64,000 nucleotides of DNA from an uncultured cyanobacterium (GCA_963744145.1 CAVUSO010000001.1:4512001-4576000); one strand, 5' to 3'. Numbered from the stretch's first letter, positions 1,401-55,463 are shown. Notes: a model not told the origin generated them from the letters alone. Translations and numbers: made by a program.

Positions 1401-1590
1401 ATGAGCAAAAAGGTTCTACTTTGACACTCCCACCCCTAAAGGGAAGTGGGATTCTTGAATCAACGACCGCACTTAACCAATTCTAATGTTTCGACTACGC
1501 TCAACACGAGTCACTCAGAACCAGCCAGAGGCGCAGTCTCCTCAAGCGTAGAAATTCCGGTGTGTCCCACCGTATTTTTTAATCCTAATC
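1401..1590 (-). ncRNA. Predicted TnpB omegaRNA/reRNA (3' end of tnpB + right end + flanking guide AGTAGAACCTTTTTGCTCAT)
   Basis: Inferred from the known TnpB architecture. Hairpins are visible between the tnpB 3' end and the TCAA boundary; the 5' limit is approximate. Confidence 0.6.
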
Positions 1591-4464: not shown

Positions 4465-5649
4465 TTAGCGATCGACCGAACCCATAATCACATCAATACT
4501 ACCGAGAATCGCCACAATATCTGCTACTTTCATCCCGCGCAATAATTGTGGTAATACCTGGAGGTTATTAAAGTCTGCGGCTCGAATTTTCCACCGCCAG
4601 GGGAAGATATTATCATCACCAATGATATAAATTCCGAGTTCTCCTTTGCCGCTTTCAATTCTGACATAGTGTTCACCTTTAGGAATTTTGAAAGTAGGTG
4701 CAATTTTTTTGCCAATGAATTGATAATCAAAATCATTCCATTCTGATTTTGGCCCAGCCGCCATCCGTTTTGCTTCCAGGTTTTCATAAGGTCCACCTGG
4801 TAAAGCGGTTAAAGCTTGACGAAGAATACTCACCGCTTGACGCATTTCTCGAATCCGAACTACATAACGAGCAAAACAATCTCCAGCCGTTTCCCATTCC
4901 ACTTCCCAATCAAAATCGTCGTAACATTCATAGTGATCGACTTTCCGCAAGTCCCATTTCACTCCCGAAGCGCGGAGAGTTGGACCAGAAAGACCCCAAT
5001 TAATCGCATCTTCACGACTAATCGTACCGATTCCTTCGACCCGACGACGGAAAATCGGGTTATCAGTAATTAAACGTTCATACTCATCAATTTTGGGCGA
5101 GAAATAGTCACAAAAATCTTCGCATTTATCTACCCAACCGTAGGGTAAATCAGCTGCTACACCACCAATCCGGAAGTAATTATTATTGACCATGCGATAA
5201 CCAGTCGCAGCTTCCCAGAGGTCATAGATTAACTCGCGTTCTCGAAAAATATAGAAAAAGGGAGTTTGGGCACCAACGTCAGCTAAGAATGGTCCTAACC
5301 ACAGCAGATGATTAGCAATCCGATTTAGCTCTAACATAATTACCCGGATATAACTAGCACGTTTAGGTACAGCGATATCAGCTAATTTTTCCGGAGCATT
5401 AACAGTAACAGCTTCATTAAACATTCCGGCGGCGTAGTCCCAGCGACTCACGTAGGGAACATACATAATATTGGTGCGGTTTTCCGCGATTTTCTCCATT
5501 CCTCGGTGCAAATAACCCAGGACTGGTTCGCAATCGATCACATTTTCCCCATCTAAAGTAACGATTAATCTCAGCACCCCGTGCATAGAGGGATGATGCG
5601 GTCCCATGTTGAGGACCATGGGTTCAGTTCTGGTTTCAATTTTGGGCAT
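4465..5649 (-). CDS. ndhH: NAD(P)H-quinone oxidoreductase subunit H
   Basis: [37 protein letters not shown] and C-terminal [10 protein letters not shown]. Start is the ATG at 5649. Confidence 0.98.
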
Positions 5650-5767
5650 TGGGTCGCATTCTCCCCTAGGTAATTGAAAATAGTTGGCGAAGTTGGGTTT
5701 ACGGGTATTATATATTCTGTTATTAGTTCTCAACCAAAAATGTGTGTCACAAAAAACTGAAACTCCG

Positions 5768-6628
5768 ATGTTTGTCCATGTTCCAGTTTTAGGTCGGGAG
5801 TTAGTTGCGGGCTTAGAGGTCTGTCCCGGTGGTCATTATTTGGATGCTACCGTCGGAGCTGGTGGACATAGCCGATTAATTTTAGCAGCAGCACCAGATG
5901 TGCGGGTCACGGCGATCGATCGGGATCAGCAAGCTTTAGCGGTAGCCCAGTCCGAACTCGCTGAATATGGCGATCGGGTCAAATTTTGGCAAGGGAATTT
6001 TGCTAATTTTCCGGCTGATGGCATTTTATTTAATGGCATAATCGCAGATTTAGGAGTAAACTCTGGTCAACTAGACACAGCCGCACGCGGTTTTAGTTTT
6101 CGGCATACTGCGGATTTAGATATGAGAATGGATCAATGTCAAACTTTGACAGCAGGTGAAATAATTAATAAATGGGGGGAAACCCAACTAGCTGAGATAT
6201 TTTATAAATATGGAGAAGAAAGACTATCTAGGCGTTTGGCCAAAAAAATTGTGGAATATCGTCCATTTCAAACTACCACCGAACTAGCCCAGGCGATCGC
6301 CGCCCATGTCCCCCGTCAATATCGATATGGCCGAATTCATCCAGCTACCCGCATTTTTCAAGCATTGCGGATAGTAGTGAATGAAGAAATGACTAGCTTA
6401 GAAGCTTTTTTAGGAAAAGTGGCGGGATGGTTAAAAGTAGGGGGTAGAATTGGAATTATCAGTTTCCATAGTTTGGAAGATCGATTAGTCAAACACTCTT
6501 TCCGAGAGTCAAATTTATTGCGGGTGCTTACCAAAAAGCCAATCATACCGGAAGCTGAAGAAATCGCCCAAAATCCCCGCTCACGTTCGGCCAAACTCAG
6601 GCTGGCCGAAAGTTTACCTAAAAATTAA
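5768..6628 (+). CDS. rsmH: 16S rRNA m4C1402 methyltransferase
   Basis: [35 protein letters not shown] and [10 protein letters not shown] motifs. Start is ATG 5768 or GTG 5744. Confidence 0.96.
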
Positions 6629-6976
6629 GTGAAAAGAGTTGATTAGCACTTATGGTTAGGATTACCAATGAGTAAAATATTCTAGGACCAGAATCCGAGT
6701 TTTTAGACCATCGGTTATCTGTCTTATTAGATCAGGTTGCAAGCAACGGTGTGATGTCATCATTATGGTGACAAATACCGTTTGTCAACACAGGTTGAAC
6801 GGGTAAAAGCAGTGTCGGGACTCGATCCGGCCAAATCATGGCCAGAACAGCACCCAAAAATTCTGGCACTTCGTCTTTTGGTGTCGGTACTTGCCCGATC
6901 ACCAAGAGTAAGCGATAGTAGTTAGAATTGCGGCCTTTGCCATCAACGTCAAATTCAGCCGGGAGTGGAGCCTCGC

Positions 6977-8662
6977 ATGAGTCAGGCAGATCGGAGCAAA
7001 CTCAGAATGATGGTCGTTGACGACGAACCGGACAACCTGGATTTGCTATACCGAACATTTAGAAGAGATTTTCAAGTTTTCAAGGCAGACAGTGGTCTGG
7101 CTGCTCTCCAAATCCTAGACCAGGAAGGGGAGATGGCCATCATAATTTCCGACCAACGGATGCCTGGGATGAACGGAACAGAATTTTTAAGTAAAACCGT
7201 AGACCGTTTTCCCGATACGATCCGGATTGTATTAACAGGCTATACAGATGTAGAAGACCTGGTAGAAGCAATTAACTCAGGTAAGGTTTTTAAATACATC
7301 ACCAAACCTTGGCAACCTGATGAACTCAAAGGAGTAGTCCAACAATCTGGGGAAACCTACAAAGTCATCAAACAGAGAACCAATGAACTGCGGCGATCGC
7401 TGCGGCGGGAACTACTGTTTAATGCGGTCACGGGAGCAATTCGAGAATCGTTAGATTATCGAAGTATGTTGCAAACCGTGGTGGAAACAGTTGGACGTAC
7501 TTTTGGGGCGAGTGGGTGCATTCTCCGACCGGTAGAAGACAATCGTCTGACCCAGGATTGTTTTTCTTATCAACTCACGCCGGAAACAGAAACAGCGGTA
7601 GAACCTCCCCCTTTGCCCATCGAAGACAACTTGATTCAATCTGTCCTTAGTAGTCGGACAACCCAACTAGCTCAAAGCGCTGAAAAAGGAAATAAATATG
7701 TAAAACTCGCAGTTCCACTAACCTATCAACAAGAACTTTTGGCGATTTTGTTTGTCTATCAATACGATAGCGCTCGACCTTTGTCTCCAGAAGATATCCA
7801 ACTGATTGAAGGTGTGGCTGAACAAGCGGCTTTAGCCATTTCCCAAGCTAAACTTTATCAGCGCTCTCAGCAGCAAGCTGAACAAATGCGCCAAGATTTG
7901 GCAGTGGCTTGTCAAATCCAAAGTAATCTGTTACCCCCAAATTTCCTGCAACTGGAAAATTTTAAAGTTCAAGCTGAATGTAAACCAGCCAGGGAAGTCG
8001 GAGGTGATTTTTATGAAATCTTTGTCCATCCAGAAGGTGATCTGTGGCTAGCAATTGGTGATGTTTCTGGTAAAGGAGTACCAGCAGCTCTGTTCATGGC
8101 TAGTGCCATTTCCGTGATGCGTCGCGAACTATCTCAAGAAAATCCCCCAGAGCCAAGTCTGGTGATGCGGAGCCTCAACAGCATTCTCTCCGAGCATCTG
8201 ATGACCAATAATTGCTTTATTACTATGGTCTTGGCTCGTTACAATCCCACCACCAGAAAACTGCTCTATGCCAACGCTGGTCATATTTATCCCATCGTCT
8301 GGTCTCAAGATGCAGTGTTAGCCAGCCATAATAACCCAGATGCCACCTTGGAAATTGAACCAAATTATCTGAAAGTGCGTGGGATTCCGGTGGGAATTTT
8401 ACCAATTTGGAAAGCCCAATCTGGGAGTATTGATTTAAATCCAGGGGATGTATTTCTACTGACTAGTGATGGGATCACAGAAGCAACTGTTCCCGATCAA
8501 GATGGGCAAAGTGCTAGCGCCATGTTGCAACAAACTGGTCTGTGGAATTTCCTGATTCAAGAAAAAAGTTCCCTGGACTTGCCTAGCCTGTTAGCTCGCA
8601 TCCAAGCACACGTTAAAGTTCAGGAAGATGACCAAACAATGCTCTCTCTGGAGGTTCTATAG
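6977..8662 (+). CDS. Receiver-GAF-PP2C (SpoIIE) phosphatase
   Basis: REC domain (VVDDEPDN, ISDQRMP, KPW), GAF domain, PP2C motifs (VGGDFY, GDVSGKG, NAGH, TSDG, DDQT). Confidence 0.93.
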   Translation: MSQADRSKLRMMVVDDEPDNLDLLYRTFRRDFQVFKADSGLAALQILDQEGEMAIIISDQRMPGMNGTEFLSKTVDRFPDTIRIVLTGYTDVEDLVEAINSGKVFKYITKPWQPDELKGVVQQSGETYKVIKQRTNELRRSLRRELLFNAVTGAIRESLDYRSMLQTVVETVGRTFGASGCILRPVEDNRLTQDCFSYQLTPETETAVEPPPLPIEDNLIQSVLSSRTTQLAQSAEKGNKYVKLAVPLTYQQELLAILFVYQYDSARPLSPEDIQLIEGVAEQAALAISQAKLYQRSQQQAEQMRQDLAVACQIQSNLLPPNFLQLENFKVQAECKPAREVGGDFYEIFVHPEGDLWLAIGDVSGKGVPAALFMASAISVMRRELSQENPPEPSLVMRSLNSILSEHLMTNNCFITMVLARYNPTTRKLLYANAGHIYPIVWSQDAVLASHNNPDATLEIEPNYLKVRGIPVGILPIWKAQSGSIDLNPGDVFLLTSDGITEATVPDQDGQSASAMLQQTGLWNFLIQEKSSLDLPSLLARIQAHVKVQEDDQTMLSLEVL

Positions 8663-17392: not shown

Positions 17393-18403
17393 ATGAAAGT
17401 AGTATTTTTTGGCACTCCTGAATTCGCTGTACCAAGTTTACAACGCTTATTAGCTCACCGGAAAATTGAAGTTTTAGGTGTGATTACTCAACCAGATCAA
17501 CCCAGAGGAAGAGGAAAAAAACTCACACCTTCTCCGGTCAAAGTATGTGCTTTATCACATAATTTACCAGTTTGGCAACCTAAAAGGATTAAAAAAGATC
17601 AAGAAGTTATATCTCAATTAAAACAGTTAGAAGCAGATTTTTTTGCTGTAGTAGCTTACGGACAGATTCTTTCCCAAGAGATTTTAGATTTACCCCAATT
17701 TGCTTGTGTCAATGTTCACGGATCTATTTTGCCTAAATATCGCGGTGCTGCACCAATTCAATGGTGTTTATATCATGGGGAAAAAGAAACTGGTATTACC
17801 ACGATGTTGATGGATGTGGGTATGGATACGGGAGCAATGTTATTAAAAGCGACAATCCCAATCAATTTACTAGATAATGCTCAAACTCTAGCAGTGAATT
17901 TAGCTGATATCGGTGCAGATTTATTAGTGGAAACTCTAGTAAAATTACAGTCTCAAACCATTGAACCGATTCCCCAAGACTCTACTCAAGCTAATTATGC
18001 ACCACTAATTCAAAAACAAGATTATGCTCTCGATTGGTCGCGATCGGCTCTTGAGTTACATGATCAAGTCAGGGGATTTTTTCCTAATTGTGTTGCTAAT
18101 TTTCGCGGACAATTAGTCAAAGTAATCTCCACTGTACCGATCGGACCTAATTACTGGGCAGAATTACCAGAACAATTCCAGAGTTTAGCACAAGAATGGC
18201 GATCGCTAGCTGATCTTTCTGGTGATCCCGGAGAAGTGATCAGTATTATCAAACGACTCGGACCAATTGTGCAAACTGGTTCGGGCTTGTTATTATTGCA
18301 GGAAATACAGCTAGCTGGTAAGCGAGTTCAATCAGGTTGGGATTTTGCGAATGGGAGTCATTTGACTGTGGGGGAGATTTGGGTAAATGGTTCAATCATT
18401 TAA
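17393..18403 (+). CDS. fmt: Methionyl-tRNA formyltransferase
   Basis: [22 protein letters not shown] and [18 protein letters not shown] motifs. Confidence 0.97.
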
Positions 18404-18751
18404 CTCAAAAAATCGACATTGGTGACATGGACCACCAGGATTCACCGCACAGCGAATTAATTCCGAATTAGCATTAAAACGACAATTAGCATCTCCTAGA
18501 ATCCAACGTCCATTTACAAAACTTCTTTCTTCTGGTTTTGGAGCAGATTGAACATAGATAGCAACTTTTTCTAAGCAATATTTACCAAATTTAAGTTGAT
18601 ACCGATGACGACGCTCTAAAACTACATAGGTTTCTCCTGCTAAATCGACATAATTCCCCGGTTGGGGAATCCAATCTAGTTGGATCTGACCAAGGGACTG
18701 ACGCGGGTGAAGCAATATTACTTCAGTTGGTAAATAGTCTAACTCCATCAT
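18392..18751 (-). CDS. Conserved cyanobacterial hypothetical protein (DUF6464-like)
   Basis: [10 protein letters not shown] and [24 protein letters not shown] motifs. Confidence 0.75.
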
Positions 18752-18772
18752 TCTTTAATTAGTCACGGTAGA

Positions 18773-18830
18773 TATACAGTGACTAATTATTTGACGTGAT
18801 GCCAAATTGTTGTCACCGATGAAAACTATT
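18773..18830 (+). mobile_element. CAST tnsB-proximal (right) end, terminal TGT mutated to TAT
   Basis: TATACAGTGACTAATTATTTGACGTGATGCCAAATTGTTGTCACCG resembles V-K CAST ends with tandem TnsB sites. Confidence 0.85.
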
Positions 18831-18885
18831 GATTTCTCTATATTCTAGCTGTTTTCCTTGATTAAAGATCGCTAGCCGTTAGTGA

Positions 18886-19014
18886 CCTGAAGTAATATCT
18901 AACCAAATCTCAACCTCTGATCCTAGCGAGAGCAATCTGATTGTCTCGGAACTTCCAGAGGAGACAAGACCAAAGTTGGAAGTGATTCAAAGTTTGCTGG
19001 AACCATGCGATCGC
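18886..19014 (+). pseudogene. tnsB: tnsB N-terminal remnant
   Basis: Translates SNLIVSELPEETRPKLEVIQSLLEPCDR, matching the V-K TnsB N-terminus (KLEVIQSLLEPCDR). Breaks at HIP1 19007-19014. Confidence 0.88.
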
Positions 19015-19144
19015 CAGGGTGGTGGGGGGTTGAGGTTGAAAGCTTCTGGGAAATGCTGCCGCCAATGGGGGAGGGGATGAAGTGCGAACCGATCGCTGTC
19101 GGACAAAATTTGGAGAATTAGCTGCATATCAAAAATCAGCTTAA
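19007..19144 (+). pseudogene. tniQ: tniQ remnants (two fused fragments)
   Basis: AIARVVG..EMLPPMGEGMKCEPI (cf. TniQ AIASVV..QMLPPAGVGMQHEPIRLC), then DRCRTKFGELAAYQKSA* (TniQ C-terminus). Frameshifted. Confidence 0.85.
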
Positions 19145-19238
19145 TGCAGGGCGGAGGAAGAAGAATGTCCTCATTGTTTTCTGCCTTTTGTGAAGATAGT
19201 CAAACGTCAGAGTTAGTCTGGCGATTGCTTAGTAATAA

Positions 19239-22200
19239 TTAATTATTTGATATTTTTTGAGAGAGCCGCTTATAGACTTCTGAAACTAACCAATCAGATA
19301 CCAACTTTTTAAAATTGATGTCATTCATATAACGAGCGAAAATATCTTCGTTTTGATCTACACGCTCAATAAATAAAGACTCAACAATTTGATTAAATAG
19401 CAAGGTAAATTTATCGGGTGAGTTGACTTGTGCTGCTTGTTGCAATTCTTCGCTATTTGCCGCCGCTTCAACAATTTGATCAAAGAAAAGTTGATCGGCT
19501 TGGTTAAAGTCAGTTCCAAAACGACTATTTAACAGATCAATTAGCTGTGATAGTTTAACAGAACTTTCACGCAAAATGCCTGTTCCTAATGCTTTCTGGC
19601 CATCTAAGGGAGATTTTTCCCCTTTTTCTAAATGAATTGAACCTTCACTAATTTTCTGAAGGCGATAATATTCAAGCTGAATATCACTATCAAAATCGTA
19701 TCGATCTTCATTAGAATGACGCAATAATTTAGGAGATAAATGACGTAAAAAAATATAAAGTTGTTCTAAATCAGAATCTTGATAAGGAATAATTTGACTC
19801 AAAAAATTATAGAGATTGCGAAAAGCTGTTAATTTTCTCCGCCAGAGTTCTGCTTCTTCAATATTCTGCTCGTATAAAGCTCGAAATCTATCAACGGCTG
19901 GATCTAATACAGCATTCATTCCTTGATGATCGGCAGGACTTTGACGCGGTTTGGGCTTAAAATAAATCGCGCAAAACCGCTTAATTTCTTCACTTAAATA
20001 GATTCCTGATGCGTCTAATTGACTTTTTAACTGGTAAAGTTGTGTGGGCTCGGCTTCCTGTCCTAACTCTGCCCCTTCATAAAACTGCTGAAATGCTTCT
20101 CGAATCTCCTCCGGTTTATTGACAAAATCAAGGATAAAGGTATCTTCTTTTTGAGGGTGAGTGCGATTCAGACGAGAGAGGGTTTGCACTGCTTGAATAC
20201 CCGATAAACGCTTATCAACATACATCGTATGTAGCAAAGGTTGATCGAAACCTGTTTGATATTTCTCGGCAACTAACAACACTTGATAGTCATTAGTAGC
20301 AAATTTTTCTGGTAATTCCTTCTCCCTAATTCCCTGATTCATTTCTTCTTCTGTATAGGTTTTATCGGAAATTTTATCGTCAGTAACAATTCCTGAAAAC
20401 GCGACTAACGTTTTGATGGGATAGCCTTTTTCTTTAATATATTTGTCAAAACTTTGTTTGTAACGAACTGCTTCCAGACGAGAACCCGTTACCACCATTG
20501 CTTTTGCCTTACCACCGATTTTATGCCGTGTAAAACTATTAAAATGTTCCACCATAATTTCAGTCTTTTGGGCAATATTATGGGGGTGGAGACGCATAAA
20601 ACGAGCTAAAGCTTTCGCGGCTTTTTTGCGCTCAACATGGGGATCATCTGAACAGTCTTTAATCAGTTTGAAGTAAGCTTTATAGGTGGTGTAGTGCTTC
20701 AATACGTCCATGATGAAGATTTCTTCAATCGCTTGACGCATGGTATAACGATGGAAGGGTTCACCTTTGCGACCAAAGAATTTTAGAGTTTTATGTTTGG
20801 GTGTAGCAGTAAAAGCAAAGAAACTGAGATTATCCTGGTGAGAGCGTTTTGCCATGCTCAGGAACATTTCTTCTAAATGTTCTAATCCTTCTTCTTCTGC
20901 CATTTCACGGGCTTTTTGATGCAATGCTTCACCACCGAGTACCCCTTTCAACTCTGTAGCACTATCCCCAGATTGAGAACTGTGAGCCTCATCAATAATC
21001 ACCGCACAGCAACGAGTTGGTAATAGTCCGCGTCCCTGTTCGTTCCGTTCTTCAGCAAGTTTAAGTAATTGTCGCGTAACAAAAGGAAATTTTTGTAGGG
21101 TTGTAATAATAATAGGAACAGCACTTTCTAGTGCTTGCGCTAACTGCTTAGAATCTTTATCTATTTTTTGAATAACGCCTTGACGGTGTTCAAATTGATA
21201 GATTGTGTCTTGTAATTGTTGATCGAGAATGCGGCGATCGCTAATCACAATTACACTATCAAAAATCCGTTGATTTTGCTCGTTATGCAGGGAAGATAAA
21301 CGATGAGTTAACCAACCAATGGTATTACTTTTGCCACTCCCTGCGGAATGTTCGATTAGATAATTCTGTCCGACTCCTTCGAGTTGGGTCGCATCAATTA
21401 ATTGACGGACGGCTTGTAATTGATGGTAACGGGGAAAGATCATGCTCTCTTTTTTGAATTTTCGCCCTTGATCATCATATTTTTGGTCTATTTGTAAATG
21501 GAGAAACTGGGCTAGGAGTTCTAGTAAACTATCTCGTTGTAAAACTTCTTCCCAAAAATAGGCGGTGCGATAGGTTCGTTCTTCGGGGTCGGGAGGGTTG
21601 CCAGCACCGTTATTGTAACCTTTATTAAAGGGTAAAAAATGGGTGGCTTTTCCGGCAAGTCTGGTAGTCATCCAGACTTCTTCGGTATCAACGGTAAAAT
21701 GAACTAATGTTCGCCGTTTAAACTCAAAAATAACCTCGTGAGGATCACGATCTTGGCGATATTGTTGTTTACCTTGTTCTACGGTTTGTCTGGTTAGGGG
21801 ATTTTTGAGTTCAATGGTTACAAGGGGAATACCATTAAGACTGAGGGTAATATCAAGTTCATTATGATTGCGATCGCTATATTGGAGTTGACGGGTAATT
21901 CCTAATTGATTGGCATTATAGCGGGTTTCTAGGTCAGTATTGAGGCTATGGGCGGCTTTGAAATAGGCTATACGCAGGGTACGTCCATAGCATTTGAAAC
22001 CGTGACGCAGGGTGTGGAGTGATCCGTAGGTATCCATCCATTTACACAGATCGGTAATGACTTGATTTGGGGTGTTTTCTCCTTGTAATGCTGCTAATTT
22101 TGCCCATTCTTTGGGTTGGGTTTGGCGGATAAAGTTGATGGCTATCTCAGGAAAAATGGCATGAGTTTTGTCAAATTTGGTTATGGTTTTAAGATAGCCG

Positions 22201-22265
22201 TGAGCTAGAAGGTAATCTTCTATGACTTGCTCAAAGGCAGTTTCGGTATGGCTTGCTATTGTCAT
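19239..22265 (-). CDS. hsdR: Type I restriction endonuclease subunit R
   Basis: LDITLSLNGIPLVTIELKN nuclease motif, HSAGSGKS, IDEAHSSQ, FTATP and QTGFDQP. Confidence 0.96.
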   Translation of the reverse strand: MTIASHTETAFEQVIEDYLLAHGYLKTITKFDKTHAIFPEIAINFIRQTQPKEWAKLAALQGENTPNQVITDLCKWMDTYGSLHTLRHGFKCYGRTLRIAYFKAAHSLNTDLETRYNANQLGITRQLQYSDRNHNELDITLSLNGIPLVTIELKNPLTRQTVEQGKQQYRQDRDPHEVIFEFKRRTLVHFTVDTEEVWMTTRLAGKATHFLPFNKGYNNGAGNPPDPEERTYRTAYFWEEVLQRDSLLELLAQFLHLQIDQKYDDQGRKFKKESMIFPRYHQLQAVRQLIDATQLEGVGQNYLIEHSAGSGKSNTIGWLTHRLSSLHNEQNQRIFDSVIVISDRRILDQQLQDTIYQFEHRQGVIQKIDKDSKQLAQALESAVPIIITTLQKFPFVTRQLLKLAEERNEQGRGLLPTRCCAVIIDEAHSSQSGDSATELKGVLGGEALHQKAREMAEEEGLEHLEEMFLSMAKRSHQDNLSFFAFTATPKHKTLKFFGRKGEPFHRYTMRQAIEEIFIMDVLKHYTTYKAYFKLIKDCSDDPHVERKKAAKALARFMRLHPHNIAQKTEIMVEHFNSFTRHKIGGKAKAMVVTGSRLEAVRYKQSFDKYIKEKGYPIKTLVAFSGIVTDDKISDKTYTEEEMNQGIREKELPEKFATNDYQVLLVAEKYQTGFDQPLLHTMYVDKRLSGIQAVQTLSRLNRTHPQKEDTFILDFVNKPEEIREAFQQFYEGAELGQEAEPTQLYQLKSQLDASGIYLSEEIKRFCAIYFKPKPRQSPADHQGMNAVLDPAVDRFRALYEQNIEEAELWRRKLTAFRNLYNFLSQIIPYQDSDLEQLYIFLRHLSPKLLRHSNEDRYDFDSDIQLEYYRLQKISEGSIHLEKGEKSPLDGQKALGTGILRESSVKLSQLIDLLNSRFGTDFNQADQLFFDQIVEAAANSEELQQAAQVNSPDKFTLLFNQIVESLFIERVDQNEDIFARYMNDINFKKLVSDWLVSEVYKRLSQKISNN

Positions 22266-22952
22266 TTATTTTTTCCTTTTTTGTGCTTTAATAGCCTCAA
22301 GTCTTGCAATATGTTTTTCTAATGCTTGAATCAAAACAAAACAAAATTCATCTAATTTGTCTCGTTGTTGAGTCTTTAAATCTCTAAGTCGTTTTCGTGC
22401 ATCTTTAAGCGGAAGATTATTTTCCTTCCCAATAGTTCCTTGAATTGCTGCTTTGCGTTTATCTTCAAGCTCACTATAATCAAGACCGAGTTTTGTAATC
22501 GTCATTGCTGCTGCCTGATCTCCAGCCTGATTTTCAATTTGACCTCGTAATTTAAAAATAAAGCGAGATTCACAGCTTTGATTTAAAGGAGAAACAAATA
22601 AATGCTGTTCATCATTCCCAGACCAATGATCTTTTTTATGAGCGCCATAAGGAACTTTATACTTGGTATTAGGTCCAGGATAGCAAGCTACAATATTACT
22701 GTATAAAACAGTTTCACCAGCAGTACAGTGTGTTTGAGGTTTGAGGTGTTCGATATGACATTTTTGTTCATCAATGCTCAAACCTGTGTATGCACATAAC
22801 CAGCCTTGTTCTTCTAGTAAAGAACGAGTCACTGCTTGAACCACATCACTGTTTTTTCGCATCAAATCATAACCAAAATTAATGTCGTTAGAATAACGAG
22901 ATCGCCATTCCTTTAACTGCTCAGGTTCATTCCTCTTCTGAATCCACTTCAT
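22266..22952 (-). CDS. HNH endonuclease, TIGR02646 / PtuB-like
   Basis: LLEEQGWLCAYTG, HIEHLKPQ, YSNIVAC and GAHKKD motifs; overlaps the ATPase gene. Confidence 0.85.
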   Translation of the reverse strand: MKWIQKRNEPEQLKEWRSRYSNDINFGYDLMRKNSDVVQAVTRSLLEEQGWLCAYTGLSIDEQKCHIEHLKPQTHCTAGETVLYSNIVACYPGPNTKYKVPYGAHKKDHWSGNDEQHLFVSPLNQSCESRFIFKLRGQIENQAGDQAAAMTITKLGLDYSELEDKRKAAIQGTIGKENNLPLKDARKRLRDLKTQQRDKLDEFCFVLIQALEKHIARLEAIKAQKRKK

Positions 22953-24255
22953 CTGCTAATGCCTCTAGGTTATTAATGCTGGCTTCAAAACGGGAAGTTT
23001 CATCGTCACTTCCGATCATACGCTTTAAAGTGTCAAGTTGATTTCTGGCTAACTCAAGATTGCCTTCTTCTAGTGAATCTTCTATAGAATTGATTTGATC
23101 TTGAGATTTGCGGTTGCGGGGTTCAGTTTCCATTAAATGTTTAAGAATCCAGCTAGAATCTAACCCAAAGGATTGAAGACCTTCTTGAATTACAATAACT
23201 CGGTTGTCTTCTTTTTGAAGTAAAATCAAACCACTGGGGTGAACTTCTCCAATGATTTGTGGTGAATGGGTAGTTGCAATAAATTGGCAATTTGGGAATG
23301 TCTGAGTCAGTTTTTCTACGATTGTTCGTTGCCAGCGTGGATGCAAATGTAGATCGAGTTCATCAATTAACACAACTGCTTTCCCTTGCTCTAATGGGTT
23401 CTCTAATTTAGGATTTGCTTGCGAAAGTCGTCGTGCCAAGTCAAGAATTAATGCTAAGATACCTCGTTCACCGTCTGAAAACAAACGTATATCAAGCTTC
23501 ATTCCTTCTTTATTTAAAAGTAATGTTGTTGTAGGTTCTCTAATAACCTCAAGTCCAGTACAGGTATCAATAAAGTTGGTTACTGCATTGTTTAATACGC
23601 TTAGATGTTTTTCTGCTAATTTTACACCTTCTTTCACCAGTGCTTCTTGAACTAACAACCACTCGGCAAATTCACGAAGGCGTAGTTCGCGATGAGTTAG
23701 TGCATCAGCAAAAGCAGCAGCTTGATTTCCTGCACTACTCTGTTTGCTAGGAGTCGCCATGTTAGCTAATGAACGACGGGTAGAAAAATAGAGTGCTAGT
23801 GGTTGTTGTTCAGCTGCTTTTAGATACTTTAGAATATCTTTTTGCTTCATGCCTTTAAGCTCTTGTGGAAGATGCTTGTCTAAAATCTCTCGAAGACGTT
23901 TTAGTTCAGGTAAATTACCATCGTCGTTTTCGATAGGTTCACTACTATGTTTAATGTTTTTCTCTCGCCATCTTCTGCTTTCGTACTCTAAACTAACACC
24001 AGCTATATTACATACAAGTGAAGTATAAAGCCAATCACGTTCAACAGTAATATCTTTGACATCAAAGTCAAGACGCTTACTTTTAGAAACGCCAACAATG
24101 GGTAGAAGTTGTGAGAGCATAATCCTTATTGCGTCAAGTACAGTGGATTTACCCACACCATTGATGCCAACAAGTAGGTTCATCCCAGGCTGAAACTCAA
24201 ATTCTGCCTGTTCAAAAGCTCGAAAATTAGTAAGTGTAAGGCGGTTAATCTGCAT
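22927..24255 (-). CDS. ABC/AAA_21-type ATPase, PtuA-like
   Basis: LTNFRAF, Walker A GINGVGKS, signature FSDGE, Walker B LIDELDLHLHPRWQ and TTHSP. Confidence 0.9.
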   Translation of the reverse strand: MQINRLTLTNFRAFEQAEFEFQPGMNLLVGINGVGKSTVLDAIRIMLSQLLPIVGVSKSKRLDFDVKDITVERDWLYTSLVCNIAGVSLEYESRRWREKNIKHSSEPIENDDGNLPELKRLREILDKHLPQELKGMKQKDILKYLKAAEQQPLALYFSTRRSLANMATPSKQSSAGNQAAAFADALTHRELRLREFAEWLLVQEALVKEGVKLAEKHLSVLNNAVTNFIDTCTGLEVIREPTTTLLLNKEGMKLDIRLFSDGERGILALILDLARRLSQANPKLENPLEQGKAVVLIDELDLHLHPRWQRTIVEKLTQTFPNCQFIATTHSPQIIGEVHPSGLILLQKEDNRVIVIQEGLQSFGLDSSWILKHLMETEPRNRKSQDQINSIEDSLEEGNLELARNQLDTLKRMIGSDDETSRFEASINNLEALADEVDSEEE

Positions 24256-24257
24256 AG

Positions 24258-25529
24258 TTACTCCTTGATTTTAAGTTGTCCGGTGACTGCTGCTGTAATT
24301 AATGATGTTCGACGTTCTTCTAAGAGTTTAATTGTTTTGTCTGTAGCTATTTTTAAAGAATCCAATTTGAAAACTTCATTTTTAATATGAGACACGATAG
24401 AATACTGTTCATTCAAGGGAGGCAATATAATTATTAAGCCACTAATAATTTCTGTATTTAAGTTTTCCATTGTCGTCCCAACAGACATCATAGACAAACT
24501 TTTACCCACAAAAGTATTTAACACCAGTAAAACTAAATATTCAGAATCGATAATTTCTAAATTAGGTCGCACTCTCAGACTACCTGAACCACACAACCAT
24601 CCAACTTCTTGTTGAGTTACCACTCCACATCGTCCAATCTCTCCTCGACGGGCAAAAACGATATCGCCACTCTCTAATTTATGAATTGACAAACGTTTTA
24701 CTGTTTCTTGATCTACAGCTACTTGATAGTCTGGAACAATTTTACCATCAACTAAATGTACAGGATTAATAACTGGAAGACCATCATCAACATAGTCTTC
24801 TGCATGGAGTTGTGTTCCAAAAGGGCCTGTTTGAAGTGATTTACTTACTGTTTTAAGTCTTTGAATTGACCAATGCTCAGGAATTTCTTTCATCCACTCA
24901 ACACCAGAATCTCGCATCGGAACATCAGGATTTAACCCACGAGTTACCGCATGGGTAATGAGGGTACGACGTTTTTCATCCAATAATTCTAGTAATCGTT
25001 TTTTGGCTTTAATTAGCTCATCTATTTTGCCTGTTTTTTGATCAAGATAATTTGCGATCGCTTCCTGAATGGAAAGTGAGTGTAAATTAATCGGAAAATC
25101 GGTAAATTTTTTTCGACTGAGTTCAATTTGATTAGTTGCTCCTTCAGAACATAAAACAGTTAGCGTGTCTTGCTGAATACTAAGGTAATAAAAAAGATAT
25201 TTTGGATAAAATCGTTGCAGTGTATCTCGAATAACAGTAACGTGTCCATCTGCAAATGTAGGTTTTTTAGGTTCTATATCAACAATTGCTACTCGGCCAA
25301 GAGTTCCTGTACCTGTAGAGTTAATTAGAATATCATCTTTGTATATCCAAGATGTAATTTTTTCTATTTCATTAGGATCTTGATATTTAGTTTTTAATAA
25401 ATTTAAACCATCAGGTGAAACACAGGCTTGATTAACAACGTGAATATCGGAATATTCAGTATAAACTGGAGCATCACCACGAGAAATAAAATCAGCAATA
25501 TATTTTAGTTTAAGTATTAAATTATTCAC
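24258..25529 (-). CDS. hsdS: Type I R-M specificity subunit
   Basis: Two TRDs separated by the conserved region LITHAVTRGLNPDVPMRDSGVEW; ends LITAAVTGQ. Confidence 0.95.
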   Translation of the reverse strand: MNNLILKLKYIADFISRGDAPVYTEYSDIHVVNQACVSPDGLNLLKTKYQDPNEIEKITSWIYKDDILINSTGTGTLGRVAIVDIEPKKPTFADGHVTVIRDTLQRFYPKYLFYYLSIQQDTLTVLCSEGATNQIELSRKKFTDFPINLHSLSIQEAIANYLDQKTGKIDELIKAKKRLLELLDEKRRTLITHAVTRGLNPDVPMRDSGVEWMKEIPEHWSIQRLKTVSKSLQTGPFGTQLHAEDYVDDGLPVINPVHLVDGKIVPDYQVAVDQETVKRLSIHKLESGDIVFARRGEIGRCGVVTQQEVGWLCGSGSLRVRPNLEIIDSEYLVLLVLNTFVGKSLSMMSVGTTMENLNTEIISGLIIILPPLNEQYSIVSHIKNEVFKLDSLKIATDKTIKLLEERRTSLITAAVTGQLKIKE

Positions 25530-27553
25530 TTTGTCACCTCCTGCAATAACCTAATAATCTCCTCTTCCATCTGTTTAATATCTGCATCAATTTCAGCTAA
25601 TGGACGAGGGGGCGTATATTTGTAAAAATAGCGATTAAAATTAATCTCATAAGCAATTCTAATATTTTCTCCATCTGCCCAAGCATCAGCAACATGAGGT
25701 TCAATTTCTTCAAGAAAATAACGGATAATTTCATCTTGTAAATTAATATTTTCAAAGTCTCTTAACTTCGAGTCTGCTTCATACATCCGTTCTATTTTTT
25801 TACCAGGAACAGGAAACCATCCCCAAACACGAGAGTTAGGTTCACCTGTGACCTTACGTTCCTTCAAAATAACAGGTTTTGCCTCTATTTCTCGTTCTGT
25901 AAATACATCTTTAAATAGCTTTTGTTCAACTTTTTTCCAACGACTACTACGCTGCTTTAATAAATCCGTCATTAACCGATCAAATTCACTCCAATCAGAA
26001 CGAGGTTCGCGTCCCAATTCTCGATCGATTGCTTGAACATCATCTAATAAGTGGGGAACGGCATCCAGAAAACGACTTTTGCGATCGAGATTCATTTGAT
26101 AGAGTAAACGTAGGGGTCGTTCAATGGGAACGCGGTGATAACCAAAATCCTCATTATCAAAAATCTTGCTGGTTTCACTTTCGACAAATTTCCCATATTC
26201 ACGCACCACAATAGCAATATCTTCTTCACCCATATAACGGCGTTTATCTCCTAAACTACGTCGCATCGGTTGCCAACAGTGACGAGCATCAATCAGTTGA
26301 ATTTTGCCTTTACGGTGTTTCTGTTTCCGGTTGGTAACAATCCAAATATAAGTACCAATTCCTGTGTTATAAAACATCTGTTCAGGTAGAGCAATAATCG
26401 CTTCTAACCAATCACTTTCGATAATCCATTTGCGAATTTCACTTTCACCACTCCCAGCACCTCCTGTAAATAAAGGTGAACCATTAAATACAATGGCAAG
26501 ACGAGAACCATTTTTATGATTTTCAGGTTGATAGAGTTCAAATTTCCTAATTTGATGCTGTAAAAACAACAGCGAACCATCATTAACTCTAGGCAACCCT
26601 GCCCCAAAACGTCCGGCAAAACCTAGCTTTTCATGTTCTCGTTTCACTTCCTTTTGCTGTCTCTTCCAGTCCACACCAAAAGGGGGATTTGCTAGAAAAT
26701 ACTCAAAGGTTTCATCAGGGTATTTATCATCAATTAAAGAGTCGCCAAACTGAATAGAACTTTTTTCATTTTCCTTCATTAATAAGTCTGAAGCGGCAAT
26801 GGCATAAGCACGGGGATTAAAATCTTGACCAAAAACCCAGAGTTGTGCTTCTTTATTATTTTCTCGTAAATAATTTTGAGCTTCTGCTAACATTCCCCCC
26901 GTACCACAAGTGGGGTCAAGGAGTTTGCAAATTACGGATTTAGTCAGAATATCATCATCAGGATCGAATAAAATATCAACCATTAAGCGGATGACTTCTC
27001 GTGGTGTAAAGTGGTCCCCTGCGGTTTCGTTGGCAGTTTCATTAAAACGACGAATTAAGTCTTCAAAAACTGACCCCATTGCAATGTTATCTACTCGATC
27101 GGGGTGTAAATCTACATCGCAAAACTTCGAGATGACTAGATAGAGGATGTTCGCCTCATTCATCTTTTCAATTTCTGCGGTAAACTCGAAACGTTCAAAG
27201 ATTTCGCAGATATTTTTTGAGAAACTATTGATATAGTTCACTAAATGTTTATCAATATTATTCGGATCGCCTTTGAGCTTTTCAAAGGTGAGTTCAGAAC
27301 GATTGTAAAAGCGTTGTCCTGCTGCTTTATTAAGCATAGAATCGAGAGCATCATCTTTTAATCGATCTTTGTATTGCTGATATTTAGTTAAAACGTCCTG
27401 TTTAGTGGGTGCAAGTACGCAGTCAAAACGGCGTAACACCGTCATTGGTAGCATAACTCGTTCATATTGCGGAGGTCGATAGGGACCACGTAAAAGATCG
27501 GCTATTTGCCAGATAAAATTAGAAAGTTGGTGATGATCAGCCATTTGTTGCAA
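25526..27553 (-). CDS. hsdM: Type I R-M methyltransferase subunit
   Basis: FIWQIADLLRG, GDHFTPREV, DPTCGTGGM and NPPF motifs. Confidence 0.96.
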   Translation of the reverse strand: MQQMADHHQLSNFIWQIADLLRGPYRPPQYERVMLPMTVLRRFDCVLAPTKQDVLTKYQQYKDRLKDDALDSMLNKAAGQRFYNRSELTFEKLKGDPNNIDKHLVNYINSFSKNICEIFERFEFTAEIEKMNEANILYLVISKFCDVDLHPDRVDNIAMGSVFEDLIRRFNETANETAGDHFTPREVIRLMVDILFDPDDDILTKSVICKLLDPTCGTGGMLAEAQNYLRENNKEAQLWVFGQDFNPRAYAIAASDLLMKENEKSSIQFGDSLIDDKYPDETFEYFLANPPFGVDWKRQQKEVKREHEKLGFAGRFGAGLPRVNDGSLLFLQHQIRKFELYQPENHKNGSRLAIVFNGSPLFTGGAGSGESEIRKWIIESDWLEAIIALPEQMFYNTGIGTYIWIVTNRKQKHRKGKIQLIDARHCWQPMRRSLGDKRRYMGEEDIAIVVREYGKFVESETSKIFDNEDFGYHRVPIERPLRLLYQMNLDRKSRFLDAVPHLLDDVQAIDRELGREPRSDWSEFDRLMTDLLKQRSSRWKKVEQKLFKDVFTEREIEAKPVILKERKVTGEPNSRVWGWFPVPGKKIERMYEADSKLRDFENINLQDEIIRYFLEEIEPHVADAWADGENIRIAYEINFNRYFYKYTPPRPLAEIDADIKQMEEEIIRLLQEVTK

Positions 27554-27675
27554 ATCCTTCGCTCAATTCACCCAAAGTGGGAGTCTCTATCGAATTTTCC
27601 TGTTTTGCTGTAATTGTTTGATTATGATTATTCTGAAAATTAATTCCGTCTGTACTTTGAGTCCTATCTACAAAA

Positions 27676-28134
27676 TTAAACTATGCGATCGCCTGTGGTA
27701 GCAAAACTGCTGAGATTATCGCGTAAGCGTTGATGAATGCGATCGCTCCAAAACGGTACAACAGACAAACCCTGATTAATTGTTTGCAAGGCTAAATCGC
27801 TGTTAAAATCGACTAAACACCGCTGTTTTGAATCCATTAACAACATAAAACGCTTCATTTGCTGTTCTGATAACGATTGCCCAAATAACCATGACTCATT
27901 GGTTTTGAGAATTTCCAGAATTTCCCGACAAACCTCAAAACTCAACCCGATAGAGAGTAAATATTCCATCACCGTCAGCCCCAATAGGTCAGCTACAGAA
28001 TAATAAACATTGCGACCCTTACCAATCGGGTTCACTGTGGGCACAATAACCCCTTTCTCGCGCCAATACTGCAATTGCCGCCGAGAGCATCCGGTAATCT
28101 GTGCCGCTTCTGTACTGGTGTAGAAATTATCCAT
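27676..28134 (-). CDS. cvkR: MerR-type repressor of V-K CAST (CvkR-like)
   Basis: MerR HTH TSTEAAQITGCSRRQLQYWREKG; divergent from the cas12k stub, as in V-K CASTs. Confidence 0.85.
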   Translation of the reverse strand: MDNFYTSTEAAQITGCSRRQLQYWREKGVIVPTVNPIGKGRNVYYSVADLLGLTVMEYLLSIGLSFEVCREILEILKTNESWLFGQSLSEQQMKRFMLLMDSKQRCLVDFNSDLALQTINQGLSVVPFWSDRIHQRLRDNLSSFATTGDRIV

Positions 28135-28215
28135 AGATTTTTATAATACTTAACTTCGTGCAAAATAATTTGAGAATTTTAAACACATAGTGTGTTCTTG
28201 TGCTACTATATTTTG
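28135..28215. promoter_or_regulatory. Divergent cvkR/cas12k promoter with a CvkR-box-like palindrome
   Basis: AACACA-TAG-TGTGTT at 28182-28196 is one mismatch from AnnACATnATGTnnT. -10-like hexamers TATTAT (minus) and TACTAT (plus) lie 6-8 bp before the respective ATGs. Confidence 0.7.
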
Positions 28216-28266
28216 ATGAGTCAAATAACTATTCAATGCCGTTTAATTGCCAAAGAATCCAGCCAA
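28216..28266 (+). pseudogene. cas12k: cas12k 5' stub
   Basis: MSQITIQCRLIAKESS matches the conserved Cas12k N-terminus. The rest of the gene and the tracrRNA are deleted; the frame runs through the repeat to a TAA at 28341. Confidence 0.85.
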
Positions 28267-28340
28267 GTTTCAACCACCATTTCAGCTAGGGGTGGTTTAA
28301 AAGTCTATAAGGATATGGGCGTAGTCGTCACTGGCAACTA
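28267..28340 (+). CRISPR. Single type V-K CRISPR repeat (28267-28303) plus putative spacer
   Basis: 37-nt GTTTCAACCACCATTTCAGCTAGGGGTGGTTTAAAAG resembles V-K repeats (GTTTCAAC...GGTGGGTTGAAAG). Only one copy, so the spacer end is undefined. Confidence 0.75.
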
Positions 28341-28348
28341 AACGAGAA

Positions 28349-28425
28349 TAATTTGTCCCAAAGACATTTAACTTGTCTCGACGACAGTAATTTGTCCCCG
28401 ACGACATTTAATTAGTCACTGTACA
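28349..28425 (-). mobile_element. CAST tRNA-proximal (left) end with 3-4 tandem TnsB-binding repeats
   Basis: TGTACAGTGACTAATTAAATGTCGTCGGGGACAAATTACTGTCGTCGAGACAAGTTAAATGTCTTTGGGACAAATTA. Confidence 0.9.
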
Positions 28426-28433
28426 GAACCTAA

Positions 28434-28504
28434 AGCGGGCAGCGGGAATCGAACCCGCATCTTTAGCTTGGAAGGCTAAGGTTTTACCACTAAACCATGC
28501 CCGC
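28434..28504 (-). tRNA. trnG: tRNA-Gly (TCC)
   Basis: GCGGGCATGGTTTAGTGGTAAAACCTTAGCCTTCCAAGCTAAAGATGCGGGTTCGATTCCCGCTGCCCGCT folds as a cloverleaf with anticodon TCC. Confidence 0.97.
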
Positions 28505-28604
28505 GATAATCACGTTTATTCAATATAGCACAGACTTCAACAATAATAACAGACTTTTTCAAAAATTTGTTCAAATTCCTGTCAAATTCTCCCAAACCCT
28601 TCAT

Positions 28605-29630
28605 TTACAAAGGTTCGAGGATAACTGACATTTCCAGCAAACTGTCAACGGGTTTACCACCGAGATAAGCTGGGACAAATTGCCAATCGGTGATCATTTT
28701 TTTGATTAACTGTTGTTCATCTACACCAGTAGGACCTTTGATGATCTGAATATAATTGGGATCAGGTTGTCCTGAACTATGGATTAGTAACCGTAAGGTG
28801 GCAACTTGACCAAAACTTTTTTCGGTTGATGATATATACTTGAGAGTGGGAAATTTGGCAATGGTTTGTTTTGGATGGGCTGATTGATCAGGAAGATCGT
28901 GATTTCCATTACCAAGTCGAAAGTTTTGGATCGTTAGGGACACACCTTGACCACCCTGACCACTTTTTCCCTGAGCTGGTACTGGTTGCGATCGCGTTTT
29001 CGATGGTTCTACCTGAGTAGATTTAGTTTTATTTCCTGAATTACTATTACTTTCTAAAGATTTACCCTGATTGATCAGTTGCTTCTGGTTTCCTGATGGT
29101 GATATTACTTTCGGTAAATCAGATTTTTTCGGTGGAACTAATTCTTTACTGCGATTTTCTGGTCTTAAAGATCCTGTTCCTGACTGATTATTACTGGAAT
29201 TAGGGATTTTCTTTGGTGCTACTTCTGGGACAGGAGCTGGTAAATTTTTGGTAGGGACAGATTTTGATACTTGTGAATCAGATTTTACCCGATTAGGTAC
29301 TAATGATTTAGATAAAGGTTTAGGAGGAACAAGACTGGAAGAAACAGGGGTTTTTTGAGAAGATACAAATTTATTATTACTAGATAATTGAGGTGTTTTT
29401 CCGATTAGCTGGTCTCCATCAATAGATAAGACTGGAATTAGATCGGTAGGGAGATTAGCTGATTGGTTTGTTTCCGTTGTTAGATATTTACCAATTAGCC
29501 AAAATCCAAATAAATGTAAACTAATTGAAACTAAAATTAGCCCTAACCACAAAGTGGGAGAATGATCAGTTGACTGATATTGATGACCTGGTTTAAATAG
29601 AGAAGATGTCATAATCAGAAAATATATCAA
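28605..29630 (-). CDS. TonB-like protein (N-terminal TM anchor, Pro/Ser/Lys-rich linker, TonB-C-like domain)
   Basis: SISLH TM motif, low-complexity linker and C-terminal WQFVPAYLGGKPV. Confidence 0.65.
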   Translation of the reverse strand: MIYFLIMTSSLFKPGHQYQSTDHSPTLWLGLILVSISLHLFGFWLIGKYLTTETNQSANLPTDLIPVLSIDGDQLIGKTPQLSSNNKFVSSQKTPVSSSLVPPKPLSKSLVPNRVKSDSQVSKSVPTKNLPAPVPEVAPKKIPNSSNNQSGTGSLRPENRSKELVPPKKSDLPKVISPSGNQKQLINQGKSLESNSNSGNKTKSTQVEPSKTRSQPVPAQGKSGQGGQGVSLTIQNFRLGNGNHDLPDQSAHPKQTIAKFPTLKYISSTEKSFGQVATLRLLIHSSGQPDPNYIQIIKGPTGVDEQQLIKKMITDWQFVPAYLGGKPVDSLLEMSVILEPL

Positions 29631-55011: not shown

Positions 55012-55104
55012 GCGGCTCGCCTCCTCTTGCGGCTCATCGTCTTCCAAATCTGAGATTATATACTACACAGCATCCTCAAAATCAGCGAATTGCAGAGCGA
55101 TCGC

Positions 55105-55449
55105 CTAGACATAGTACATCTCATCGCCAATAAACTCCCAAACCCTCGGACGAACCGCTTTTTTACTGAGCAAATCTACTTTGTTTTGCAACTTTTCCTC
55201 TAAAAAATCCCCCAGCGTCACTAGCTCTAGTCCTAACGGGCGATCGTAGTCAAACAGAATATCAATATCACTGTCAGACTTAGACTCACCTCGTGCCACC
55301 GAGCCAAATATGGCTAACTCAGTAATGCCCCATCGTTCATAAAGATAGGGTTTAAGCGATTGTAAAATAGGCATCACTTGACTTAATTCAGGAACAGCAG
55401 ACTCACGATTCATATTCATCCGTTTGTTCTCCTCTGGCATAGGAACCAA
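55105..55449 (-). CDS. MNT-type nucleotidyltransferase antitoxin
   Basis: IFGSVARGE...SDIDIL and KVDL motifs; start uncertain. Confidence 0.88.
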   Translation of the reverse strand: MVPMPEENKRMNMNRESAVPELSQVMPILQSLKPYLYERWGITELAIFGSVARGESKSDSDIDILFDYDRPLGLELVTLGDFLEEKLQNKVDLLSKKAVRPRVWEFIGDEMYYV

Positions 55450-55463
55450 AAATCCCTATCTAA

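Follow-up and report, generated by a model that had tools for sequence, protein, structure and literature searches.

Why does a type I restriction-modification (RM) operon hold genes for an ATPase and an HNH nuclease between its specificity gene and its restriction gene? The question is raised by a 64,000-nucleotide stretch of DNA from an uncultured cyanobacterium (GCA_963744145.1 CAVUSO010000001.1:4512001-4576000), referred to below as the window, in which five genes run in the order hsdM, hsdS, ptuA, ptuB and hsdR. The middle pair resembles the defense system Septu, and we found the PtuA clade to which it belongs exclusively in type I RM loci. By analogy with PrrC, PtuA and PtuB (together PtuAB) may be latent with a working type I complex and released upon its inhibition, an answer that we hold tentatively and place somewhat short of an even chance. 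Such a guard is plausible but unproven, both the type I complex as inhibitor or sensor and an anti-restriction trigger being suggested by linkage.

The question matters beyond this locus. For stand-alone Septu, an escaper screen returned no phage trigger (PMC13096335), and falling ATP has been proposed as the signal (PMC12673091). A Septu clade that is confined to one type I clade, together with a methylase-fused lineage, makes the restriction complex a candidate for its sensor or partner. If this is true, guardians of RM extend beyond PrrC and PARIS, the two named in PMC12707154. If it is false, the operon illustrates cleanly for how long a host operon can keep a passenger system locked in. 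The compactness of the five-gene operon, which also occurs on a conjugative plasmid, makes the idea of a sensor or partner testable.

A Septu-type pair within a type I operon

The five open reading frames (ORFs) are intact and occupy positions 19239 to 27553 of the minus strand. hsdM (25526-27553; 675 amino acids [aa], TTG start) matches HsdM_N and N6_Mtase in Pfam and MTase_I in PADLOC (PDLC03029, 4.4e-265); its true start may be an ATG three codons inside, where the clade consensus begins, and this leaves the layout unaffected. hsdS (24258-25529; 423 aa, GTG start) contains two stretches of Methylase_S and matches PADLOC Specificity_I over residues 24 to 422 (1.2e-92). ptuA (22927-24255; 442 aa, ATG start) matches AAA_15/AAA_21/SMC_N in Pfam and PtuA in PADLOC (PDLC00271, 1e-122). 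ptuB (22266-22952; 228 aa, ATG start) has no Pfam match and was identified by the PADLOC profile for PtuB, which it matches over the full length (PDLC00346, 1.8e-68). hsdR (19239-22265; 1008 aa, ATG start) carries HSDR_N, SWI2_SNF2, ResIII and T1R_D3-like domains and matches PADLOC REase_I (1.6e-37) and the NCBIfam hsdR subfamily (5.5e-59). Coupling is tight throughout, with a 4-bp overlap at hsdM/hsdS, a 2-bp gap at hsdS/ptuA, a 26-bp overlap at ptuA/ptuB and a 0-bp gap at ptuB/hsdR.

Each component of a type I RM system is represented. HsdM combines HsdM_N and the N6 methylase domain with an NPPF-type motif (LANPPFG), HsdS has two target-recognition units, and HsdR has the motifs of a PD-(D/E)xK nuclease (D-x13-ELK) and of an SF2 translocase (IIDEAH). 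The translation of ptuA shows GINGVGKST, LSDGERG, VVLIDELD and TTHSP, and that of ptuB shows C53, H69 and N86. ORF coordinates, Pfam, PADLOC and motifs thus bear out what a model had reported from the sequence alone (the sequence-only reading), namely the order hsdM-hsdS-ATPase-HNH-hsdR, the intactness of the genes and the sizes of their junctions. The same reading had described the middle pair as PtuA/PtuB-like, and on this point it was confirmed by PADLOC, the PDB, NCBIfam and a structure model of PtuB.

The window PtuA is covered by the PADLOC profile over its full length (residues 1-434 on profile positions 1-418 of 421). Its alignment to the structure of E. coli Septu PtuA, PDB 8ee4, also runs from end to end (residues 1-400 to 1-424, 9e-33). 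Retron PtuAs, which are about 550 aa long, matched only its C-terminal half in the PDB search (residues ~184-420), and its score against the NCBIfam model for retron-Ec78 PtuA, NF041760, was 243, under the cutoff of 500. A coiled-coil insert of the retron PtuA type, roughly 100 aa, is missing. Among the best 25 of its 192 PADLOC matches, all were PtuA, retron I-A ATPase or AriA, and none was PrrC. Residues G30, K36, S260, G262, E263, D298, E299 and H330 are conserved, those of the Walker A, signature, Walker B and H-loop motifs at 90% or more.

PtuB scored 68.1 against NCBIfam TIGR02646 (cutoff, 52.15), and C53, E68, H69 and N86 are invariant among 37 sequences. A sequence-only search of the PDB gave no match for PtuB. 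An AlphaFold2 model built from an alignment of the same number of sequences had a predicted local distance difference test (pLDDT) value of 92.7 and a predicted template modeling (pTM) score of 0.88. In Foldseek its top match was 8eea_G, the PtuB of E. coli Septu (E 7.4e-08; template modeling [TM] score, 0.70), and the next ten were retron PtuB chains. The predicted fold is an HNH nuclease with a C-terminal helical domain. Together, the profile matches, the match to a solved structure and the confident PtuB model identify the middle pair as a true Septu-type PtuA/PtuB.

The pair was also considered as the effector part of a type I-A retron. ORF calling across the 64-kb window gave 47 non-overlapping frames of 90 aa or more, and Pfam detected no RVT family in any of them, which agrees with the earlier statement that no reverse transcriptase lies nearby. 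Rfam at its gathering threshold returned one tRNA only, a search to be read with the fact that some retron RNAs have no model. We rejected the retron explanation because there is no RVT gene, no retron-type insert in PtuA, and a score below the NF041760 cutoff. At stand-alone PtuAB loci of Nostoc, an upstream 305-aa ORF resembles by eye a metallophosphoesterase and not a reverse transcriptase.

Occurrence of the PtuA clade in type I loci

A PtuA profile made from 33 homologs was scanned on prokaryote genomes, one for each species, and 584 relatives were confirmed. The best 80 of these were analyzed with 10-kb flanks, and context was counted by tblastn with the five proteins of the window. Hsd genes, on the same strand and in the same order, accompany 39 of these 80 PtuA-seeded loci, and the other 41, which are stand-alone PtuA or PtuA-PtuB, have no Hsd gene. 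HsdM lies upstream in 36 of the 39; the remaining three have less than 710 nt of contig upstream. HsdR lies downstream in 34, and three of the five others end within 500 nt. Two loci, L021 and L052, have room downstream and no adjacent HsdR, so that HsdR is present in 34/36 loci with room.

A maximum-likelihood tree of PtuA with 74 rows, 38 from RM contexts (the window included) and 36 stand-alone, separated the two contexts by one branch with ultrafast bootstrap (UFBoot) and Shimodaira-Hasegawa-like approximate likelihood ratio test (SH-aLRT) support of 100/100. Three ORFs shorter than 380 aa and four loci missed in ORF calling were left out of it. Context changed a single time in 200/200 bootstrap trees. 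Every sampled member of the RM-context clade (39/39) is in a type I RM locus with its Hsd genes in order. Homologs that are mostly stand-alone or in random contexts, which the sequence-only reading had named as speaking against its proposal, are therefore not what this clade consists of. Where upstream room allows a judgment, PtuAB of this clade was never found without HsdM (0/36 loci), whereas the RM clade does occur without PtuAB.

The RM-context PtuAs include representatives of Cyanobacteriota, Pseudomonadota, Chloroflexota, Bacteroidota, Acidobacteriota, Gemmatimonadota, Planctomycetota, Kiritimatiellota, Spirochaetota, Armatimonadota and Binatota. A 268-kb conjugative IncP plasmid from the non-pathogenic bacterium Ketogulonicigenium vulgare also has these five genes, with overlapping frames, next to trb genes and a Phd/YefM antitoxin gene. 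In RM-context loci, hsdS and ptuA overlap or abut in 26 of 35 cases and ptuA and ptuB in 25 of 29; among solo loci, ptuA and ptuB share a 4-bp overlap in 26 of 33. Such joint travel of a Septu pair with a restriction system across many phyla suggests that the two work together.

The consistent presence of HsdR bears on one way in which they might do so. The methyltransferase core (M2S1), or a translocating complex stalled on unmodified DNA, would recruit PtuA-PtuB as a second nuclease that extends or replaces cleavage by HsdR, and the pair would not be a guard against inhibition of the RM system. L021, L052 and L145, which keep hsdM, ptuA and ptuB and have no clade HsdR within 10 kb, fit this explanation, as does the reported action of stand-alone E. 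coli Septu PtuAB on nicked DNA (PMC11555353). However, HsdR is intact in the window as well as in nearly all RM-context loci with room, so replacement is not the rule; moreover, there is no sign of recruitment, and the nuclease targets of PtuAB vary between systems (tRNA or DNA). We regard an auxiliary effector of this kind as unlikely.

Gain and loss of the pair in the HsdM clade

The linkage was also followed from the side of the methyltransferase. In a search of 401 cyanobacterial genomes with HsdM, 46 matched at an E value of 1e-60 or better, and 40 of 50 places outside the window's own genome were retrieved. A profile of 30 clade HsdMs, scanned over metagenome contigs, yielded 80 loci. 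In the resulting HsdM tree (140 rows), a single clade with SH-aLRT support of 100 and a stem branch of 0.45 holds all 48 PtuAB-bearing rows. Inside this clade (63 rows), 48 rows have PtuAB, 5 lack it and 10 are cut by a contig end; outside it (77 rows), the corresponding counts are 0, 48 and 29.

Clade members that were found through HsdM constitute an unbiased sample, in which 20 loci could be judged. Fourteen carry ptuA. Five of the six others (L130, L139, L151, L206 and L208, the HsdMs of L206 and L208 being identical) have other genes or none in the slot. The sixth, L089, a close relative with an HsdM of 80% identity, bears a deletion (~1084-2444) which runs from mid-hsdS through ptuA into ptuB and leaves a ptuB that is N-terminally truncated, from about residue 43, directly before hsdR. 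With PtuAB in 48/53 judged rows of the clade, in 0/48 outside it and ptuA in 14/20 of the HsdM-seeded members, we conclude that a single entry of PtuAB, at the root of this RM clade, was followed by retention in most members, and that the RM system can do without the pair.

An ImmA/IrrE (peptidase M78, helix-turn-helix [HTH]) and DUF4411 pair fills the slot between hsdS and hsdR in two of the members that lack PtuAB, L151 (6334-7988) and L206 (4473-6109). In L152 such a pair (5347-6989) is present together with PtuAB.

Co-divergence and possible exchange of operon segments

Co-divergence was assessed for 18 loci in which all five genes are full length. Pairwise distances of PtuA were correlated with those of HsdM at 0.85, a value that was not reached in any of 2000 permutations. 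The correlation was 0.82 for HsdM-HsdR, 0.69 for PtuA-HsdR and 0.46 for PtuA-PtuB. In addition, three sub-clades of the PtuA tree recur in the HsdM tree. Mean identities across these loci were 39% for PtuA and 37% for PtuB, the faster-evolving proteins, and 63% and 69% for HsdM and HsdR, respectively.

The closest related island, L129, has HsdM and HsdR that are 91% identical to those of the window, whereas its PtuA is 48%, its PtuB 38% and its HsdS about 41% identical. PtuA of Planktothrix agardhii is 97% identical to the window protein. Because the PtuA of L129 is so distant despite 91% identity in HsdM and HsdR, and that of P. agardhii is so close, these comparisons suggest that the middle segment hsdS-ptuA-ptuB may have been swapped between related operons.

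HsdM has a C-terminal extension of about 200 aa with a clade-specific conserved patch (L496, P500, W521, W539, F547, R548, F551 and T552), and HsdR has a clade-specific 12-aa insert at residues 401 to 412, just before the DEAH motif. The 423-aa HsdS of the window contains only Methylase_S in Pfam, and HsdS lengths are alike with and without PtuAB. Some HsdRs of the clade (L018, L020, L027, L042, L084 and L135) measure about 1180 to 1220 aa instead of the usual ~1010, i.e., they are 170 to 200 aa longer.

PtuA-type ATPases fused to HsdM

A second connection between the two families was found among the longer PtuA homologs, 5 of 14 of which contain HsdM_N and N6_Mtase. Four of the five, each about 900 aa, consist of a whole HsdM followed by a whole PtuA-like ATPase from residue ~472; the fifth resembles a deletion chimera. 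When relatives of the ATPase half of one fusion were searched, N6_Mtase was present in 36 of the 120 listed proteins (counted by eye), at 41 to 100% identity and lengths of 557 to 1055 aa. The fusions are therefore a diversified family and not an artefact. The family is metagenomic and its members measure roughly 860 to 1055 aa (P0125-P0128, P0135-P0162 and P0172). All of the cluster members that were looked up are metagenomic singletons, no full-length match was found in 301 Myxococcota genomes, and viral contigs gave matches to the ATPase part only. The same ATPase-half search also returned related ATPases that are fused to SIR2-like, Mrr_cat, TIR, SAVED or LRR domains.

A tree of 101 sequences included 17 of the fused ATPase domains. 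They group as a single clade (support, 97) in the stand-alone part of the tree, adjoining a Calothrix PtuA that has its own PtuB, and the RM-embedded clade stays intact with support of 100. Since the fused domains fall on the stand-alone side, the link to HsdM arose a second time, and type I methyltransferases have acquired a PtuA-family ATPase on at least two independent occasions. By tethering the ATPase permanently to a methylase, the fusions also lend something to the auxiliary effector introduced above.

Guard or passenger

The history and the operation that we propose are as follows. The ancestor of a single HsdM/HsdR clade would have acquired a PtuAB pair on one occasion, and since then the pair would have been inherited and horizontally transferred with this clade, partly on conjugative plasmids. 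PtuA-PtuB would be functionally tied to the methyltransferase core and remain latent while the type I complex works normally. They would be released or switched on when the complex is blocked, for instance by DNA-mimic or peptide anti-restriction proteins, whereupon PtuB may cut tRNA or DNA and abort the infection. Septu and retron PtuAB are able to cleave tRNA-Tyr (PMC13096335, PMC11555353), and the published PtuAB systems cut either tRNA-Tyr or DNA (PMC13096335, PMC11555353, PMC12673091). The proposed logic would be that of PrrC with EcoprrI, or of a type I-A retron in which the type I complex takes the place of the sensor made of reverse transcriptase and multicopy single-stranded DNA (RT-msDNA). 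We favor a functional tie because PtuAB of this clade was never seen without HsdM while the RM clade was seen without PtuAB, because a fusion to HsdM arose independently, and because PrrC and the type I-A retrons provide precedents.

A more specific version can be formulated. PtuA might bind the methyltransferase core near the C-terminal region of HsdM and read the state of the complex from there. This Septu clade would then be a restriction guardian, widespread and independent of PrrC, whose trigger is the jamming of the enzyme by anti-restriction proteins. It would give non-retron Septu a first defined physiological sensor and type I restriction a second, convergent way of being guarded. The site on HsdM is proposed because the clade-specific patch of HsdM lies there and because the fusion lineage attaches its ATPase there. 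In this detailed form the proposal is rather unlikely.

A number of observations weigh against a working partnership. HsdS does not track PtuA (distance correlation, 0.25). Co-divergence as such proves co-inheritance as a unit and not contact, and promoterless genes within an operon would give the same pattern. The HsdM patch and the HsdR insert could equally reflect co-adaptation of HsdM and HsdR with each other. Neither of the RM-embedded proteins is set apart from the stand-alone sister group by a domain, insert or motif of its own, and no docking module is visible: the lengths and motifs of PtuA and PtuB are the same in both contexts, the only consistent differences in PtuA are R264 (K in the others) and A293 (G), and PtuB shows no consistent difference. 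ptuA is missing from 6/20 HsdM-seeded members. Related operons hold ImmA/IrrE with DUF4411, YhcG/DUF1016, RhuM, VapC pairs and Schlafen-type ATPases in the same and neighboring slots, and such varied cargo fits an insertion hot spot. Finally, stand-alone Septu has been reported to be active without an RM partner, via falling ATP (PMC12673091).

Many of these points are what one would expect of an independent passenger, that is, of a self-sufficient Septu which landed once in a permissive slot, was kept there by a shared promoter and co-transfer, and provides a layered, mechanistically separate defense. Unrelated cargo in both the hsdM-hsdS and the hsdS-hsdR slots of the same RM family, the lack of a clade-specific domain in PtuA and PtuB, and the loss or replacement of PtuAB in HsdM-seeded members all agree with it. 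A second type I locus in the window likewise has cargo between hsdM and hsdS. Published work explains linkage of embedded systems by co-transfer (bioRxiv 10.1101/2024.01.29.577857) and calls the hsdS-hsdR site a potential recombination hot spot (PMC12255303). A passenger should sometimes escape, yet 0/39 sampled clade members were outside an Hsd context despite a mean PtuA identity as low as that of the 18 loci, and co-transfer on its own hardly accounts for the lineage in which a PtuA-like ATPase was fused to HsdM independently. We therefore treat the passenger as a serious possibility, with less than an even chance of being correct, and retain the PrrC-like guard as our tentative preference.

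Setting of the operon in the window

The operon is part of a block that has the appearance of a small mobile island and adjoins a tRNA gene. tRNA-Gly(TCC) (28434-28504, minus strand; Rfam, 75.7 bits; also found by ARAGORN) lies directly upstream of the block and is its candidate integration site. A repeat search identified a 17-nt direct repeat, TACAGTGACTAATTAAA, at 28407-28423 (minus strand), 11 nt 3' of this tRNA gene, as one candidate island end. The second copy, TACCGTGACTAATTAAA, at 18754-18770 (minus strand), between hsdR and a DUF6464 gene, is the candidate other end. The two copies are 9653 nt apart and flank the genes for a MerR-like protein, HsdM, HsdS, PtuA, PtuB and HsdR. At up to one mismatch, the repeat has only three copies in the 7.7-Mb genome, the third lying 6 nt 3' of tRNA-Val, and the L129 island has the same repeat core 3' of tRNA-Pro. 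By eye, an inverted copy of the core adjoins the distal repeat in the alignment.

No integrase was found within the block. An empty site was not found: the 341-aa flank gene was present in 1/20 relatives and tRNA-Gly in 0/10 of the relatives' DUF6464 neighborhoods, synteny being lost at the available distances.

The resemblance to a mobile island is also what a stabilizing or addiction module would lead one to expect, in which PtuAB is mainly a toxin whose control by the operon penalizes loss or disruption of the RM island. The 17-nt repeats beside the tRNA gene and the five-gene operon next to a Phd/YefM antitoxin gene on the conjugative IncP plasmid are in its favor. Against it, the operon itself encodes no antitoxin-like partner, PtuAB was cleanly lost in several relatives, and type I RM systems are poor addiction modules. 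We consider this explanation very improbable.

Upstream of hsdM, a gene for a MerR-family HTH protein (27676-28134, minus strand; 152 aa; MerR_1, 2.6e-16) is, from its Pfam match, a probable regulator of the operon. Homologs precede hsdM in L129, which has PtuAB, and in L115, L117 and L118, which lack it, and they were found in none of the 80 PtuA-seeded loci. We rejected this gene as part of the link to PtuAB because it precedes operons without the pair as well; it goes with the RM family in cyanobacteria. The interval from the tRNA to the MerR-like gene contains three short direct repeats of the form GTC..GACAAATTA (~28340-28400, minus strand), which are conserved in L129 (~155-235) and could serve the MerR-like regulator as an operator or belong to the island end. 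A promoter and terminator scan of positions 18300 to 28800 returned fewer sites than in shuffled sequence and is hence uninformative.

The second type I RM locus of the window belongs to another family (53677-63535, minus strand). It comprises hsdR with DUF4145 and EcoEI_R_C, hsdM and hsdS, with a Uma2 nuclease gene and two MNT-type nucleotidyltransferase genes between the latter two. Its GC content is 0.48 to 0.50, compared to about 0.39 elsewhere. An IS605 OrfB/TnpB-like gene with OrfB_IS605 and Cas12f1-like TNB domains is located at 1511-2734 (minus strand).

Comparison with known systems

The embedding of defense systems in type I operons has already been published in general terms. A bioRxiv report (10.1101/2024.01.29.577857) describes the same general architecture and the same slot, states that Septu is commonly embedded in Hma, and suggests that embedded ABC-ATPase defenses may back up the surrounding system. 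Its text does not single out Septu in type I RM and describes neither clade-level co-divergence nor a fusion to HsdM, although its figures and supplementary tables may list Septu. DarTG2 occupies the slot between hsdS and hsdR in enteropathogenic E. coli (PMC12255303). In the parts covered, the RM guardians named by a 2025 review are PrrC and PARIS, with no mention of Septu (PMC12707154), and Septu is linked in the PADLOC paper solely to reverse transcriptases and Hma (PMC8565338). In the literature covered, we found no description of a Septu clade dedicated to type I RM, with the reservation that figures and supplements of the bioRxiv report beyond the text covered may list such cases.

Septu type I of E. 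coli (PDB 8ee4/8eea) shares with the window system an ABC ATPase without a coiled-coil insert, an HNH nuclease with a C-terminal helical domain, and overlapping genes. Canonical Septu is a stand-alone two-gene locus, whereas the clade described here was seen in no place other than the hsdS-hsdR slot of a single type I RM clade, with which it co-diverges. The type I-A retrons (Retron-Eco7/Ec78 and Eco4/Ec83) possess a homologous effector pair that is held by a separate sensor module (PMC12673091), and their PtuB folds match that of the window at TM scores of 0.62 to 0.71. In Retron-Eco7, RT-msDNA keeps two PtuA-PtuB complexes inactive (PMC12673091). The window differs from these retrons in having neither a reverse transcriptase nor a known noncoding RNA, and its PtuA does not have the insert of about 100 aa.

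PrrC is the closest precedent for the proposed guard. The gene order of its locus is hsdM-hsdS-prrC-hsdR. Like the window system, PrrC with EcoprrI is an ABC-ATPase-regulated nuclease encoded within a type I RM locus, to which it is always linked (PMC3458546, PMC1484252, PMC12707154). PrrC is a single polypeptide with a distinct anticodon-nuclease domain, whereas the window encodes two Septu-family proteins, an ATPase and an HNH nuclease. Together with EcoprrI, PrrC stays latent until a T4 inhibitor of that enzyme activates it (PMC1484252, PMC12707154). For PrrC it has been demonstrated that the RM enzyme silences it and that an anti-restriction factor activates it; for the window system both are proposed. 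The HsdM-PtuA fusions resemble the window system in that a PtuA-family ATPase is joined to a type I methyltransferase; they differ from it in that the connection is covalent, is made at the C terminus of HsdM and involves a different PtuA lineage.

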